Origin: an uncultured Verrucomicrobiae bacterium
GTDB lineage: Bacteria; Verrucomicrobiota; Verrucomicrobiia; Chthoniobacterales; JAFAMB01
NCBI GenBank assembly: GCA_963837955.1
Contig: CAWIPH010000002.1
Location: 3,392,001 to 3,456,000, forward strand
Direction: 5' to 3'
DNA: 64,000 nucleotides
Made by a program: the position numbers. Positions 42,001 through 60,000 of the stretch are shown in pieces. Every line of letters begins with the position of its first letter. The first letter of the stretch is position 1.

Positions 42001-45000
42001 GGGATGACCCCGAATTCATTGGTTCTGGGCGGTCGACGAGTGAAAGTGCGTAGGCCACGAGCGCGCCGCACGTTGGGTGGCGACGTGCCACCTCGTTTAA
42101 GAACTCGCCAATCCTAACGGTTGGGGTCTCCGGAACGATCTACATCACGCCGATTTCGCTCAGGCGTGCTCGGTGCGCACACGCAATGTCTTCGCATCAA
42201 ATCGCCACTAACGCAATTCCATCGAAAAGCACCGGCGTCTGCGCCGCGACTGCCCGATTGAGAGCATATTGATTGCGTTTATGGCTACTACAAATTTTAA
42301 TCCTGCCGAGGTTATTACTCGCTACTTGTCGCTCTTTGTTCTCGGACGATATCTTCGAGCGTGACAATGCCGATCATTCGCTTTTCACGAGTCAGCACGG
42401 GCAGTTGGCTAAGGTTTCTTGCACGCATCAAATTTTCAGCTTCAGCGATGGTTTGGTCTTCAAAGCAATAGACCGTTTCCTGATTCAGTTCCGTTTGCGC
42501 GAGTTCGATCTTCGGGTCGTGGCCGAGACCACTGACTTTGCGGTTAAGCTCACTCTCCGACACCGTTCCGAGTATATGGCCGTTCTTATCGGTCACGGGA
42601 GACGAAGTTATCCCCTCAGATCGCAGCTCTTCGCAAGCTTCCTGGACCGAAGCCTCGGGCCCCAAACTCTTTGCCTCGCGACGCACAATTTCTTTGAGCT
42701 TTCTTGGCGCAAGTTCTTCGATTTGGTCGATGGCGGATTTAGTTTTCATAATGGTGTGGTTTTGCCAAACCTCTTTCTGCAGCCAAGCTTCCACATCCTA
42801 GTCGGTTCCTCCGAAGCGGAAACGCTTGCCCTGAACCCAGGATCTTTTGGGGTAATCAAGCGTAAGCCAGGTTTTAGTGAGAGAAACACCAAAGGAGCCG
42901 CAGTAGGGATTTTTCTTGAACCTCACCCTTTCGAACGGCCCCGGAAACTCGGAAGGCACCCATTCGATAATGAGGCGATATTGTTCGCCGTATTTCTCGG
43001 TCGATAGGACCTTTGCGTGAATCGATGTCACACGGCTAGCCGGTCCAGTCTTCCCGAGACAGTTCCGGAGTAGAGTCTTTTCCGCCTGATTCGATCGATT
43101 GCGTCGGCGATTTCCTTAGCTTCCCAGGTAGGATGAACGTCGGATGTTCCGGAGGCGCTAACGAAAGCTGGCTCATTTTCATCAATTGGTTCGTTCATTG
43201 GCATTTCATCATTTAAAAAGTATGTGACCATGAGCCGGCTGATTTAGTCCGTTATCGAGGATAGAAAAGTACTCATGTTGGTGGTCTTTTTTTAGAACTA
43301 CGACTCGACTGCTTCGCGTTGGGGACGTGGTGCAGTGGTATAAAACACGGAGCGGCGCATTTCCTATCCACCTGTCAGCGGAATAAGCGGTCAAAAGCTT
43401 CATGGACATTCGCTTTCGTGCGATTGTCTTGTCTCTAGTCATTGAGCGTTTCTTTCATCCCGGTTTAGTTCAGATTCGCCATAGTCGGAGACTCCACCAT
43501 CTGGCATTATCATTCTCGCCCGGATCGTTGAGCCTCTCCCATACCTTTCTCGAAGTATTACTGTTGCTTCCGCGTATGACGACTGACAGGAAAGTGGGTA
43601 GGGAACGCTGTTGCGGATACTAATTCGCCCTGGTCCAAATGTAATTTCGGCCCATTAATGCGATACCAATATACCCACGGACCTTGATCCTGTCTGGTCC
43701 CTGCAGTTCCATAAAACAGGAATAGGTTTTGCCGCTCTTCGGGTCGTAAACCGTCCCGTTCTCCCAGCGAGTGTCGCTTTTTTTTGTAAAGCCAGATATG
43801 AACACAAGCCCGATGATTGGATAGTTGCGTTTCTTTGGATCTGGATTGTAAATATCGGTCTTCTCTTTTCCCTCACTCGTCTTCGGCTCGCTCAAAGCCA
43901 CGATCCTGGCACTAAGTTTGCCTTCACTTTCGAACATCTCAAAGGTGGCGTCTTGGCCCTTCCAGAATCCAATCGGGGATGCAGGATCGGTTGCGTGAAC
44001 TGCGGTCGCTCCAAACCAGCAGGTGACCAGCACCAAGAGCGGATAGGGAAGTCGGGAGGTATTCATAGGTTCACGCTCCCAGTTCGGGCCGAGCAGTTCC
44101 GGATTACTCCGGCGAGTCACTGGCCCGTTGCTGGTTTCAATCTAGAGCATCCTCCCAATTTGCCGTCACGAGAGGATCGGCTAACTACCGTGACGAAGTC
44201 TCGTTCGGATCGATTAGTTTCTCTCATACTCTTCGCGACGCGTTACCGTTGTTTTTGAGTATGACGACTGATGTTCTTTCAACCCGCAGACTGCTCCTCG
44301 CGGCTACGAACATTTCCCTTTCATTGGTCAAGACCTCAACCGGCATTGTTGTGCCGCCTTCCTGATCCAACCGATGCCGTTTCGGGAATAGGTCGGATGT
44401 ATTGTTGAAACGTTAGCCAGTCAACGCGAGTCTTGTCCCATTCCTGGAGAGCGAGGCCATACGATTCAAACACCTCGCGGATCTGGGCCGAATTCAATTT
44501 CAGAATATCTTCGAGGATCGGTACCAGAACACTGAGTGCGCTATCGCTGAGCACTGTCCGTTTGGCGATGCGGCCAAGAAACTTGGCCTCGGAGACAGCG
44601 ATAGTATAGCCCTCCCGACTGTTCACATGCAGCATCACGAATAGGTCCGAACTGCCGTCGCCCATATAGATCGTATGATCTGGCGTCATCTGCAGCTTGG
44701 TTTCCAGTTCCTGCAGTACAGCAATTTTGCCATAGCCCGCGGAAACGCGTTTGACGGCAGAAATTTCGCCAGTCGAAGAATCGTATTCGAGCTGTGTGCC
44801 AAAGATGCGATCCGCTGGGACAATCCCTTCGAGAGCCGACTGAACGACATCTTGGGGGGAAGCCGAGATTACATAAAACGGAAAACTATAGCCGGCGAGA
44901 CCCTTTTCGAAGAACTCCGCCAACAGATCGACGTTATTTTTCAGACGGACATGCTTGCCAGCCTCAATCAGATGTTCTCTGCGCACGGTGCGGAATTCCG

Positions 45001-57000: not shown

Positions 57001-60000
57001 CGCGATGGGTAAGAAGAATTAAGGAGTCTTCCGGAAGCGCTCTTTACACCAATATCGATCAGGCGGTTGAAGGGATTGCTTCTCTGGTTCCGCAAGTCGG
57101 TGATGAACTCCAGGCGCGCGCGGAAAACCCGACACAAGCGAGCTGACGCAGTTAAGCATCTATGAACCATCCCGTCCCCCCAAATGACAGTTCGGATGGT
57201 TCAACCCCCGAGGACCTCGGAAAGTTTGTCAATCTCTGGTTCGCAGTTGCAGTGATCGGATTGTTCGTCTTTGCCTTTTTCTACACCCTGAAGGTAGCGG
57301 TTGACCTTTTTCTCCCCATCGTGCTTGCAGGTTTTCTCGGTTTCCTGCTAACGCCTATCACCAGATGGTTAAAGAAAATCGGTTTGTCAAACTTTTGGGC
57401 ACCGCTTGTCGGCACCCTCGGCTTTTTGACCATCTTGATCTGCCTTTTTGCCGCGCTGGGTGTATCATTAGCGAGGTTCGAACCTGATTTCCCCCGCTAT
57501 CTCGATCACATTCAGGAACGTTTGACGCCAATCCTTCAAGCTGTCCAGAAAAGTTCTCCATCGATCGACCGCCTAGGCGCCTGGTTGAACCCAGGCAACA
57601 TCCTTCAGGTAAGCATCCGCGGGCCAAGCTTTGTGGAGATGGCTCTGAAGAACGCGCCGAAATTTTTGGCGATTCTGGTCATTGTTCACGTACTTGCTTT
57701 CTTCCTTCTGCTGTACGGAGGCCGGCTCCTCAAAAAGCTCGTCGATATGATCCCGGGTGTGTCAGAGAAACAAAACGTCGTCGAAATCGCGTCCGAGATT
57801 GAGCAAACCGCCGCGCGTTACTTTACTTCGGTCACGCTGATCAATGCCGGTTTAGGGGTGAGTGTTTGGATCTCCGTCGGTTTACTGGGACTACCCCATC
57901 CGTTGCTTTGGGGTGTTGCTGCGTTTTTGCTCCATTACATTCCCTTCGTGGGATCAACGGGTGGCATCGTGGCAATGACGCTTGTTTCACTGATTCATTT
58001 TGATTCGGTCTGGTACGCCCTGTTGCCACCTCTGGCCTATGTCTTTTGTGCGATGATTGAAGGAAACCTAGCGACGCCGCTGTTCCTTGGGCGCTGGTTA
58101 ACCCTGAACCCGATCGCCATCCTGCTGACTTTTCTTCTTTGGTCCTACCTCTGGGGTGTGGCCGGCACTCTGCTCGCTGTTCCCCTCCTGGCGACCTTCA
58201 AAATATTCTGCGATCGAATTGAGCCACTGAGACGGGTGGGCTCATTCCTTGGGCGACCGTAAATACGGTTAAAGCCGAAAGCGACTCTTTCCAGTCCCAT
58301 TTTTTCCCGCGATTGGCGCGACTGGAAAAGTGAATTTTACAGTCTGGCCAGTCCATCCTCGATTTCCGGCGGTCGACTTTTGCCATACGCAAAAGCGAGA
58401 GCAACCCTTCGGGAACGGTATTGGAGAAGCTTATGGATCCGGGCAAGAATCATAGGCCGTTTCAGATCTGACTACGGGGCCTTTGAAGCGGCTAAGGGAC
58501 AATTGTATGAAGATCGGAATTATCGGAGCGGGGAAAGTTGGCGGTGGCCTTGGAAAGTTGTGGGTTAAAGCCGGACATCAAGTCCTCTTCAGTTCGCGTC
58601 ATCCAAAGCGCCTAAGAGTGCTAGTCGAAGAAGCGGGACCAGGAGCGTATCTCGGCGACGTTGGAGATGCGGCTCTGTTTGGCGATGTAATCTTGTTCTC
58701 GCCAAATTTCTGGGGCGTGGACGATGCATTAGCAGGCCGCGGGACCAATGAAAGGGAGGACAGTGATCGATGTCACAAACCCGGTCGAGTGGAATCCGAA
58801 CGGCAGGATGGTCCGTTCTCTGCCTCAGTCAACCTCGGCGGGCGAAGAGCTGGCTAAAAAACTTCCAAATGCTCGCGTCGTTAAAGCATTCAGCACCATT
58901 CCTGCGTCTTTCATTCCGCACGCGACTTACCGAACCGGCCCGCTTCAGCGTTTGGTCGTGTTTTACTGCGGCGATTACCAAACATCAAAAGCAATTGTTC
59001 ATCAATTAGTCACGGATAGTGGATTTGTCGGTCTTGATGCTGGCCGGCTGCGAATGGCCAAAGAACTTGAGGCTCCAGGTCGAATGAATCGAGCCGGTCT
59101 CATAGGGATCGCACAAGCTAAGCGTCTACTTAATCAGCTCACTGGTTCGGTCCAAAATGAGTCGCTAGTGTCTTACGTTTCTAACGAACCAGCATTCGTT
59201 GAGGAAGCGGGCGCGTCCGCGAATTAGAAGGTCACTGATCAGTGATTACTGATTACTGATTACTGATTACTGATTAATAAAAGGGGCGGTGAGAGATTTC
59301 TACCGAGAACTTGCCGATATGCATCCACTAATCACTTCTCACCTGTCACCTCTCATGCGCTGGATCCCTGAGCCGGGAGGATCAGGCTACGTAAGAGAAC
59401 GAAATTTGCGGCGTCAACGCTTCGAGGACTGCAAGTCACGCAACGGAACTGTCGGCTTGATGTTCTGCTGCGTGTGTATACTCAGCTCAGTCTGTTCCCA
59501 CGTATCGATCGTGGTCTTCAGTCGCGGCTCAAGTTTTCGCATCATACCGCTGCAGTAATCATAGTATTGCCGCAACCACTCGCGCCGGTACTCGAAATTG
59601 TCTGCTTTATTAGAATTGTCCCACATCTGGATGGCAGTAGGATCCAGTTGAGCGATGGTCTGAATCTGGCGAAATCGAACCTTGTCTTTCACATCTTGTT
59701 CAGCCAGCGGTTTGGGCTTAGGAGTCGGCGTTCCGATCGGTATGCCCTGAGGGAGTAGGTCGGCCGGATTAGGACCGGGAGTTGGTGTGGGCGGTAACTT
59801 GCCGGATTCTGGTAGGAGATCGGGGGCGGAAGGTGGCGGAGTTGGAATCGGAACACTGTCCGGGTTTGGCAAAAGATCGCGCGGTATTTTCGGGATCGGT
59901 GTCGCCGATGGCGAAGGCGAAGATGAGGCGGAGGCTGAAGGCGAAGGGGCACTTAATGGCGACGGGGAAGGTGACGGCGAGGCCGACGCGCTCGGTTGCG

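Follow-up and report, generated by a model that had tools for sequence, protein, structure and literature searches.

A conserved promoter motif in a Chthoniobacterales family and its predicted dependence on a LysR-type regulator

What does a long, oriented sequence motif signify when it recurs upstream of unrelated genes, and which protein reads it? The question arises from a gene island within a 64,000-nt window of contig CAWIPH010000002.1 (assembly GCA_963837955.1; source genome G000), to which the coordinates below refer; the genome belongs to a family of uncultured soil Verrucomicrobia. A first-pass annotation saw here a LysR-linked stress/dormancy regulon, an interpretation that we find partly supported: the link to LysR draws support from operator geometry, from the class of the recognition helix, from the co-occurrence of motif and gene and from the way a core overlaps the predicted promoter of lysR. 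On sequence comparison, we consider it likely that the sites are promoters dependent on the island LysR, a protein of the BenM/CbnR/AlsR class.

A conserved intergenic motif of about 70 bp

The motif family was confirmed. An nhmmer search at E ≤ 1e-3 returned the 19 sites previously reported, 11 of them in the island between 43.5 and 58.5 kb of the window, and the best match in the reversed genome reached only E 0.7. The earlier consensus pattern matched the source genome 5, 12 and 13 times at zero, one and two mismatches, its reported 12 sites being the one-mismatch count, and again gave no match in the reversed genome; within the window, nine matches at up to two mismatches compare with an expectation of zero from 100 shuffles. 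Conservation extends from −77 to −7, about 70 bp and not the 37 bp originally given, and the spacing is not strictly fixed, being 37 bp in 127 of 155 sites and 38 bp in 17. The cores lie outside ORFs of at least 150 aa at 17 of the 19 source-genome sites versus 47 of 200 random places; this, together with stops in sites 2 and 9, led us to reject a coding remnant as the origin of the apparent frame through the motif. RNAalifold found 0 pairs in 40 sequences, and Rfam matched tRNAs only, not the motif.

The 37-bp core reads ATAC-N7-CAAC-N7-CTTC-N7-GTAT and is followed by GGGAGA-N17-GAnnnT, which we read as −35 and −10 boxes with predicted transcription starts. Under the predicted −10 box the core spans −72 to −36, with halves at −72 to −58 and −50 to −36. 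The outer boxes, ATAC and GTAT, are 83–100% conserved over 127 sites, partly through selection of the 37-bp class, and the inner boxes, CAAC and CKTC, deviate from GTAT and ATAC. Dyad symmetry spans the whole 37 bp and is not found within each half: neither half-site is a full ATAC-N7-GTAT, and T-N11-A occurs in 133 of 160 first half-sites and 76 of 160 second half-sites, where T-N10-A is present in 148 of 160.

To avoid circularity, the LysR-selected loci L088–L112 were scanned with a matrix built from only the 37-bp core, giving 49 matches versus one in the control; xAxxxT lay exactly 23 nt past GTAT in 34 of these, and the next-best offset accounted for seven. A −10 hexamer of the sigma70 family (A at −11, T at −7) occupies this +23 position in 66 of 103 de-duplicated sites. 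The TTG of a consensus sigma70 −35 box is found in one of the 103, which is consistent with activator dependence. The tRNA promoters of the source genome carry TTG at −48 to −38 in 37 of 49 cases and have −10 boxes similar to those of the regulon (CTAGCTT, CGAGAAT, CGATACT); base −12 is G at 47 of 67 sites versus T at 14 of 27 tRNA promoters, a difference that counts against the LysR reading, and a genome-wide check of the −12 base paired with TTG boxes gave no clear signal. Four genomes have a single core shared by two divergent genes, with xAxxxT at +23 in each direction, an arrangement that a binder with two-fold symmetry would be expected to produce.

The GGAGAAG of the earlier pattern was also considered as a ribosome-binding site and rejected: the predicted start lies a median of 121 nt from the ORF, and a distance of 10 nt or less was seen in just 6 of 153 cases. 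The start-to-ORF comparison itself gave 153 of 197 downstream of the sites versus 91 of 200 for an upstream-facing control, the fairer one; a random-position control (157 of 300) is weak, internal start codons being counted in it. Two soil metatranscriptome runs from one study contained 0.06 of the words, in contigs only; contigs from relatives cover 41.8–58.5 kb and almost nothing of 38.5–41.8 kb. No transcript starts are visible in these RNA contigs, which are therefore not used as support.

Predicted promoters and genes of the island

Site 1 (43512–43577, minus strand), with its core at 43577–43541, −35 box at 43540–43535 and −10 box GAGAAT at 43517–43512, precedes small ORFs and a CBS-domain gene (42794–42315). 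Core and predicted promoter are likewise present at site 2 (44197–44262, minus), before a DUF2147 gene (ORF 44120–43620); at site 3 (45210–45276, minus; 18-bp spacer), before a HAD-IB phosphatase (45178–44336); and at site 4 (45395–45460, plus), before a 152-aa protein (45569–46027) with a hydrophobic N-terminal stretch and no Pfam match. Site 5 (47000–47065, plus) has the same elements before a DUF5670/lmo0937 gene (47138–47287) and a Usp gene (47484–47957). Of the DUF5670 genes earlier listed as targets, the one at 47138 thus has a site, whereas the one at 50292 does not. Site 6 (49262–49327, minus), with −10 box TAAACT, precedes a 28-aa DUF3309-like membrane peptide (49253–49167), and downstream of it lies a gene for an ECF sigma factor (48190–48771, minus) that is SigK-like below the model cut-off. 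Site 7 (49399–49464, plus; E 1e-3) is degenerate and stands before an ORF at 49615–49842.

The centre of the island is a divergent pair of regulator genes. An 85-aa XRE/HTH_3 protein resembling C.AhdI and C.BclI is encoded by xre (50724–50981, minus), and a 299-aa LysR-type regulator with the helix VSQPPFSKQI by lysR (51276–52175, plus). Site 8 (51104–51170, minus) faces xre with a 38-bp core (51170–51133) and a weak −10 box. A predicted sigma70-type lysR promoter (51157–51185, plus; −35 TTGCTT at 51157–51162, −10 TATGAT at 51180–51185) overlaps this site, and a 16-bp palindrome (51183–51198), a candidate XRE operator, covers the predicted lysR start. Beyond lysR, core and predicted promoter recur at site 9 (52609–52674, minus), before a truncated DUF2147 copy (52475–52233); at site 10 (52789–52854, plus), before a paralogue of the 152-aa protein (52989–53447); and at site 11 (58385–58450, plus), before an F420-type NADP oxidoreductase in two frames (58483–58857 and 58748–59227). 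Sites are present, as had been claimed, at both lysR-xre copies and at groES2-groEL2.

Candidate regulators

The nearest solved structures to the island LysR are 7W06, CbnR, BenM and CatM, the last three being among seven PDB matches. Its best NCBIfam model is AlsR, and all scores fall below the curated cut-offs (AlsR 233 bits versus 430, BenM 124 versus 600, CatM 111 versus 580, OxyR 80 versus 329). An AlphaFold model was poor (pLDDT 56) and was left unused, and no relatives were found in viral contigs. The recognition helix is invariant in 16 orthologues and differs in two sampled paralogues of about 39% identity. Such a QPP helix, with the residue-level contacts that we take it to make, presumably matches ATAC/GTAT boxes. 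In the source genome, a 7/8 match to ATAC-N7-GTAT lies upstream of four of six other QPP-helix LysR genes and of none of 17 with other helices. Sites cluster around lysR in all 80 metagenomic loci, with a divergent site at 70 of 77, and the predicted lysR promoter pattern overlaps the core at 21 of 32 orthologue loci in one set and at 67 of 77 in another; LysR operators are typically arranged in this way, overlapped by the promoter of a divergently transcribed regulator gene.

Of the 43 family genomes, 34 have sites, 1–41 in each; genomes sampled from other families have none. Among the 21 genomes with at least five sites, 20 carry a lysR orthologue, intact or as fragments, and none was found in the nine zero-site genomes. 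Genome G023, thought to possess the LysR without the motif, has three sites, one of them beside lysR at E 2e-9. The main counter-evidence comes from G039 (94% complete, 22 sites), where lysR is present only in deleted, frameshifted form, and G021 (75% complete, 15 sites), where no orthologue was found; nor was one found in seven incomplete genomes with 1–3 sites. The co-occurrence of sites and lysR partly reflects physical linkage.

We envisage that a LysR tetramer would occupy four in-phase boxes (ATAC at −72, CAAC at −61, CKTC at −50 and GTAT at −39), forming two asymmetric half-sites in inverted orientation, and would recruit a sigma70-family RNA polymerase, carrying either RpoD or the RpoS-like factor, to the adjoining −35 box, GGGAGA, which is poor beside the TTG of housekeeping promoters here, with the C-GAnnnT −10 box 17 bp beyond it. 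Without active LysR, these promoters would be nearly silent. LysR may also repress its own overlapping promoter while turning on xre, and the C-protein-like XRE probably binds the lysR-start palindrome, which would create a feedback loop. As to the inducing signal, kinship with AlsR and BenM allows the guess of a small organic acid or low pH.

The main rival to LysR is the XRE protein, which could itself be the activator, two dimers binding the core and controlling its own gene and the regulon in the manner of restriction-modification controllers. It tracks the sites as well as LysR does (25 of the 43 genomes yielded a copy, the nine zero-site genomes none), and xre is the commonest target family, with 21 of 162 sites in divergent and tandem layouts. 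Its nearest structures are C.AhdI and C.BclI; C.Esp1396I binds a double operator of 35 bp, and C-boxes consist of 3-bp motifs on either side of a central TATA (PMC3488213). However, such boxes are absent from the core consensus and present in the lysR-start palindrome, whose symmetrised family consensus is GATCCT-TATA-AGGATC and whose palindromy is 9.4 of 16 versus 4.1 when shuffled, and neither G027 (14 sites) nor G014 yielded an XRE gene. XRE more likely binds this separate palindrome instead of the core, and its role as the activator seems unlikely to us; a 13.5-bit palindrome matrix singles out no further sites in the source genome. The resemblance to C proteins extends to the TATA-centred palindrome adjoining xre, whereas no restriction-modification genes are among the island's Pfam matches and XRE is here paired with a LysR.

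An unlinked protein, either one of the six further QPP-type LysRs of the source genome or a core factor, might instead bind the core, leaving the island LysR as passenger or target. G039 and G021, where 22 and 15 sites persist although no intact orthologue was found, and loci L110 and L111, where a site points into lysR itself, favour this; the clustering around island-type lysR in every metagenomic locus and the helix that is invariant among 16 orthologues and different in the two sampled paralogues speak against it, and we give it a low probability. We regard as very improbable a promoter defined solely by an alternative sigma factor, be it the island ECF or a SigB-like factor using RRGTAT, presumably similar to a SigB −10 box, even though the ECF gene lies inside the island and SigB/RpoS regulons typically include such genes as CsbD, YciF and lmo0937. 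An ECF orthologue is present in eight of nine zero-site genomes and was not found in five genomes with 10–29 sites; because it does not track the motif, the ECF is rejected as regulator and read as a target, which largely removes the worry raised by the first-pass annotation. No SigB/F/G-type factor is encoded in the source genome, whose region-3 sigmas comprise RpoD, two RpoS-like copies (one at C2:503818–504675), the RpoS-like sigma being near-invariant across the family, and one further factor that we read as FliA-like. Nor would a directional sigma account for the bidirectional cores, for a second box at +23 or for the ATA that is invariant at −72. Finally, the sites could lack any shared trans regulator and be remnants of duplication, copies of a small mobile repeat or parts of a structured RNA. 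Island blocks are indeed duplicated at 82–90% identity, and median core identity among source-genome sites is 62.5%, but flank identity in most site pairs is no higher than chance (0.36), the fixed positions are conserved across genera amid variable spacer letters, and the intergenic position and the RNAalifold and Rfam results given above also argue against it. This reading is largely refuted, and we find it scarcely credible.

Targets, promoter copying and known systems

The predicted dependence on LysR concerns promoters of non-homologous genes. The non-homologous targets claimed in relatives, namely YciF (DUF892), an alternate F1F0 beta subunit and CsbD, were recovered, and stress-type genes are frequent among targets (also Hsp20, Usp, a desaturase and groES2). 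Many targets are of other kinds (phosphofructokinase, a sugar-binding protein, a transposase, a tubulin-like protein), no catalase or peroxiredoxin is among those scanned, and a CIRCE pattern matched neither the source genome nor ten groES loci. 'Stress' is drawn from part of the target list, and 'dormancy' finds no specific support. The sequences suggest a stress programme run through a LysR protein, with a regulon of 1–41 promoters per genome that would be enriched in general-stress-type genes and grow partly by copying of the 70-bp cassette. The claim that the motif is not a duplication holds for the unrelated flanks of most sites, but the cores are too alike for independent origins, and the groES2 promoter (C2:4806456) is demonstrably a copy of an island promoter: site 10, its closest relative, shares 94% of the core and 70% of the leader. 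This match falls within the definition, 80% over 50 nt, proposed for putative mobile promoters, near-identical promoter DNA upstream of unrelated genes (Nijveen et al., PMC3575422); the copies here differ in that they make up a large family for which a cognate activator is predicted.

The closest parallels are the operators of BenM/CatM (Acinetobacter baylyi) and CbnR. The BenM consensus is ATAC-N7-GTAT, with a regulatory site near −65 and site 2 directly before the −35 box (PMC6628147, PMC11495319). On predicted starts, a regulatory site near −65 and an activation site next to −35 are found here too, and the likeness includes the ATAC/GTAT outer boxes, T-N11-A in most first half-sites, A-rich site centres, two adjacent sites of which the second abuts −35, and overlap with the regulator's own promoter. 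By contrast, the inner boxes are CAAC and CKTC instead of GTAT and ATAC, no third site over −10 is seen, the targets are 1–41 and scattered instead of a few catabolic operons, and the LysR scores well below the BenM and CatM models. The predicted geometry resembles that of OxyR, a LysR-type protein that controls many stress genes and, as a tetramer, covers four consecutive boxes within 37 bp beside −35; its boxes are ATAG/CTAT, and it differs further in the low OxyR score of the island LysR and the lack of catalase or peroxiredoxin among scanned targets. Literature searches on BenM base contacts and AlsR sites returned nothing usable.

WatR (Methylomonas sp. DH-1) and AlsR (Bacillus subtilis) are further LysR-type proteins, both of which respond to weak acids. 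For WatR, 22 ChIP peaks are reported that include small membrane-peptide genes, whereas its motif, ATTGTT-N11-AACAA, overlaps the polymerase site (PMC10355033). AlsR is the best model for the island LysR, which nonetheless falls short of its cut-off. CsbD, YciF/DUF892, lmo0937, transglycosylase-associated protein, Usp and Hsp20 belong to SigB/RpoS/EcfG regulons and are shared with this one, whereas in the present case no dedicated sigma but a LysR operator upstream of the promoter seems to confer specificity, and the module has a patchy distribution inside a single family.

The searchable literature, which leaves out most subscription journals, yielded no description of a regulon or a binding motif in Chthoniobacterales; we regard the lineage-specific LysR regulon as new and its mechanism as known, a LysR tetramer at a weak sigma70 promoter being textbook, which limits the surprise. 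Tentatively, the family's general-stress regulon may be built on a portable lysR-xre switch with no dedicated sigma, LysR gating a 70-bp cassette that is possibly read by the RpoS-like sigma, which would explain C-GA at −13 to −11, and XRE closing the feedback at the lysR start. Such a regulon could have grown from two to about 40 promoters by whole-cassette copying before unrelated genes, and its minimal module may also occur in a genome labelled Phycisphaerales. If the reading of the sites as LysR-dependent promoters is right, they would be a clear natural case of roughly 20-fold regulon growth inside a single family, where copying is demonstrable for at least one promoter, and would provide an uncultured lineage with a master regulator, a high-information motif (no false matches in controls) and a target list. 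As relatives of the lineage are found in many metagenomes, the activity of its stress programme would then be readable from metatranscriptomes.

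Motif occurrence and predicted promoter anatomy

The motif reported in the first-pass annotation is real: a profile built from 13 seed sites found 19 sites in the source genome at E ≤ 1e-3, of which the island (window ~43.5–58.5 kb) has 11, and the top match in the reversed genome had an E value of 0.7. The earlier pattern (ATAC-N5-RGCRAM-N-GYAAC-N12-GTAT, then GGAGAAG) gave 5, 12 and 13 genomic matches at 0, 1 and 2 mismatches and none in reversed sequence, the previously reported 12 being the value at one mismatch; the window held nine at ≤2 mismatches, and 100 shuffles none. 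A sequence-only model made from 40 sites (R1) returned 20 genomic sites at E ≤ 0.01. Cores lay outside ORFs of at least 150 aa in 17 of 19 cases, versus 47 of 200 random places.

Among 127 de-duplicated sites of the 37-bp class, numbered so that the last box falls at −12 to −7, information content stays high between −77 and −7 and drops outside these limits. The consensus is g.cATAc-caaA-gCaAc-gtAAc-c.Tcga.AA.aGTAT, followed by nGGagaa and then, beyond a largely variable spacer, by cgA.a.t. As a non-circular test, a matrix derived solely from the nine 37-bp window cores was scanned over both strands of 650 kb of loci picked by LysR protein similarity (L088–L112), giving 49 matches versus one in the control; 42 carry GG at +2,+3 and 34 carry xAxxxT exactly 23 nt past GTAT (next-best offset, 7). 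The predicted promoter thus continues past GTAT with a 6-bp box and, after a 17-bp spacer, a −10 box bearing A−11/T−7, the signature of group 1/2 sigma factors. GGAGAAG is the −35 region of this predicted promoter; reading it as a ribosome-binding site is ruled out because genes begin a median of 121 nt past the predicted start. A TTG −35 occurs in 1 of 103 regulon sites; tRNA promoters of the source genome have TTG at −48 to −38 in 37 of 49, with spacing mostly of 16–17 bp and with CTAGCTT, CGAGAAT and CGATACT among their −10 boxes. A coding ORF lies downstream of 153 of 197 sites (opposite direction, 91 of 200). Neither RNA secondary structure nor an Rfam match was found for the sites.

Candidate regulators

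The core spans −72 to −36 in promoter numbering, with boxes 11 bp apart; OxyR operators likewise have a 37-bp geometry. The island LysR (51276..52175, + strand) has CbnR, BenM and CatM among its seven PDB sequences at E ≤ 1e-20, and its top NCBIfam model, AlsR, is under the cut-off. For BenM, PMC6628147 and PMC11495319 describe ATAC-N7-GTAT as the consensus, with a regulatory site near −65 and a second site, containing A-runs, that the −35 hexamer directly follows. The regulon sites, numbered from predicted starts, share the ATAC/GTAT boxes, the position near −65 and the second site abutting −35, but differ in that neither core half is a complete ATAC-N7-GTAT; this counts against the LysR reading, as does half-site 2, which fits T-N11-A at just 76 of 160 sites. 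The LysR helix VSQPPFSKQI is unchanged in 16 orthologues and, as an internal control, four of six other QPP-helix LysR genes in the source genome have an upstream 7/8 match to ATAC-N7-GTAT, versus none of 17 non-QPP genes. One second QPP-helix LysR (window 10503–11393) has its own 7/8 site at 11400–11414, with a divergent NmrA-like gene.

At four of eight DUF5662 loci showing a core, the core also faces a divergent gene (identified as a desaturase in L038 and L086), and on each side xAxxxT follows at +23; such two-way cores fit a two-fold symmetric binder, not a sigma factor. A predicted lysR promoter (TTGCWT-N16/17-TATGRT) overlaps the core on the opposite strand at 21 of 32 loci from genomes and 67 of 77 from metagenomes, on sequence grounds a classic autoregulatory layout. 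We consider it probable that the island LysR activates the predicted promoters.

Two neighbouring regulators were weighed against LysR. The ECF sigma factor, earlier raised as a possible regulator, is unlikely to fill that role: its orthologue is present in 33 of 43 family genomes, including eight of the nine without sites, and it is more likely a target because the island and G029 copies sit downstream of sites. The XRE protein (50724..50981, − strand), similar to C.AhdI and C.BclI and adjoining lysR divergently or in tandem, heads the list of target families, with 21 of 162 sites. It tracks sites, occurring in 25 of 43 family genomes and none of the nine zero-site genomes, so co-occurrence cannot tell XRE from LysR. 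C-proteins bind 3-bp boxes flanking a TATA spacer (PMC3488213), a unit that the core lacks. That build does appear in a palindrome of 16 bp that covers the predicted lysR start (consensus GATCCT-TATA-AGGATC; palindromy 9.4/16 versus 4.1 shuffled, 21 sequences), kept in 67 metagenome loci, although part of this conservation may be the lysR promoter itself. We infer that LysR would turn xre on and that XRE would act, up or down, at the lysR start.

The source genome encodes RpoD, two RpoS-like group-2 factors (C2:503818–504675 and 110023–110850) and a fourth factor read as FliA-like. Most family members share the RpoS-like sigma at 96–100% identity, the majority of zero-site genomes among them; some 11 genomes, mainly site-rich ones, have further, diverged copies. 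Of 67 regulon −10 boxes, 47 carry G at −12 and 56 carry C at −13, and tRNA promoters favour T at −12 (14 of 27). G−12/C−13 could mark a weak RpoD promoter or be the signature of an RpoS-like factor; a genome-wide comparison of the −12 base with TTG boxes in the source genome gave no clear signal.

Distribution across genomes

Of the 43 family genomes, 34 have at least one site (range 1–41), 21 at least five and nine none; stricter filters returned none from 134 sampled genomes in 15 further families of the order, nor from a sample of 150 across the phylum. LysR orthologues (at least 58% identity, with a gap below down to about 41%) are present in 23 of 43; fragments occur in G029, where contig ends cut the gene, and in G039 and G008, whose copies have internal deletions. 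No orthologue was found in the nine zero-site genomes. Of ten near-complete genomes, eight have both sites and lysR and two have neither, if two broken copies are scored as present. Cases to the contrary are G039 (22 sites, lysR only broken), G021 (75% complete; 15 sites, no lysR found) and seven incomplete genomes with 1–3 sites and no orthologue found. G023, said to have lysR without the motif, in fact has three sites, one adjoining lysR. No p-value is attached to the co-occurrence, given the relatedness of the genomes and the linkage of the island genes. Frameshifted or internally deleted lysR copies occur in several relatives (L106, L107, L108, L109, L111), and G002 seemingly has one intact and two broken copies.

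The 40 genome-contig loci with LysR relatives are titled Chthoniobacterales or Verrucomicrobia, except one "bacterium", one Phycisphaerales and one distant actinobacterial match. The Phycisphaerales-titled genome (G323:C8, L110:7000–9200) has lysR (63%) and xre together with a single motif site, the only one in that genome, near hslU-, hemC- and rplL-type genes; either horizontal transfer of a minimal module or a binning error would account for this.

A search of literature listings and abstract openings on Chthoniobacterales regulons, stress or binding motifs, or on LysR with CsbD/YciF general stress, turned up nothing on this system. The mechanism is already known, because global LysR regulons exist, such as that of WatR (22 peaks; PMC10355033); the motif, target set, lysR–xre pairing and ~20-fold range in regulon size appear undescribed so far.

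Target genes and promoter copying

Targets were traced for 205 of the 484 family matches, taken from the source genome and from selected stretches of its relatives; these sites lead to 75 protein clusters, of which some are spurious ORFs. Scanned representatives include YciF/DUF892, CsbD, Hsp20, Usp, DUF5670/lmo0937, transglycosylase-associated, SPFH, CBS and PRC-barrel proteins, fatty-acid desaturase, P-type ATPases, L,D-transpeptidase, CsrA, and ECF and AraC regulators; others are phosphofructokinase, a sugar-binding protein, a K+ channel, a transposase and a tubulin-like protein. Pfam matches were absent in 19 of 42 and 9 of 23 scanned representatives. As first noted, sites in relatives precede the genes for YciF, CsbD and the alternate F1F0 ATP synthase subunit (beta, above cut-off). 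Of the proposed stress/dormancy role, the stress part is suggested solely by the likeness of the first set, from YciF to the AraC regulators, to SigB/RpoS regulons; nothing points specifically to dormancy. In L157:808–2247 (G028) one site is directed into the gene of a DDE transposase, which has probably inserted downstream of a regulon promoter.

The island is flanked by a pentose-phosphate cluster with a transaldolase–phosphoglucose isomerase fusion (window 26926–38932) and by nitrile hydratase genes (61400–63010); two tRNA-Pro genes lie at 63143–63596. An F420-type NADP oxidoreductase gene (58483–59227) is split over two frames but intact in relatives. Short 7-base tandem repeats lie just past gene ends (59240–59280, 61170–61260). 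Duplicated blocks comprise 45225–46093 and 52623–53514 (82% identity), 43864–44229 and 52273–52641 (90%; second DUF2147 copy truncated), and 50494–52165 and C2:2149269–2150961 (86%).

The view that the motif is a regulon signal and not a duplication is only half right. Across 171 pairs in the source genome, median flank identity is 0.36, the random level, against 0.625 for cores, too close a likeness for separate origins; pairs with shared flanks are mostly gene duplications. The groES2 promoter (C2:4806456) is the one demonstrated copy of an island promoter. It matches site 10 (52789..52854, + strand) at 94% over the core and 70% over the 60-nt leader; upstream DNA is unrelated, and site 10 precedes an unrelated gene, that of a 152-aa protein (52989–53447). 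Just two of ten groES loci examined across five congeneric genomes carry one of the sites. A pattern search for CIRCE elements gave none in the source genome or those ten loci (L117–L126), and chaperone control here may operate without HrcA. The groES2 copy matches the description of putative mobile promoters (PMC3575422), and the sharp site boundaries suggest that promoter copying may be a general route by which the regulon grows.
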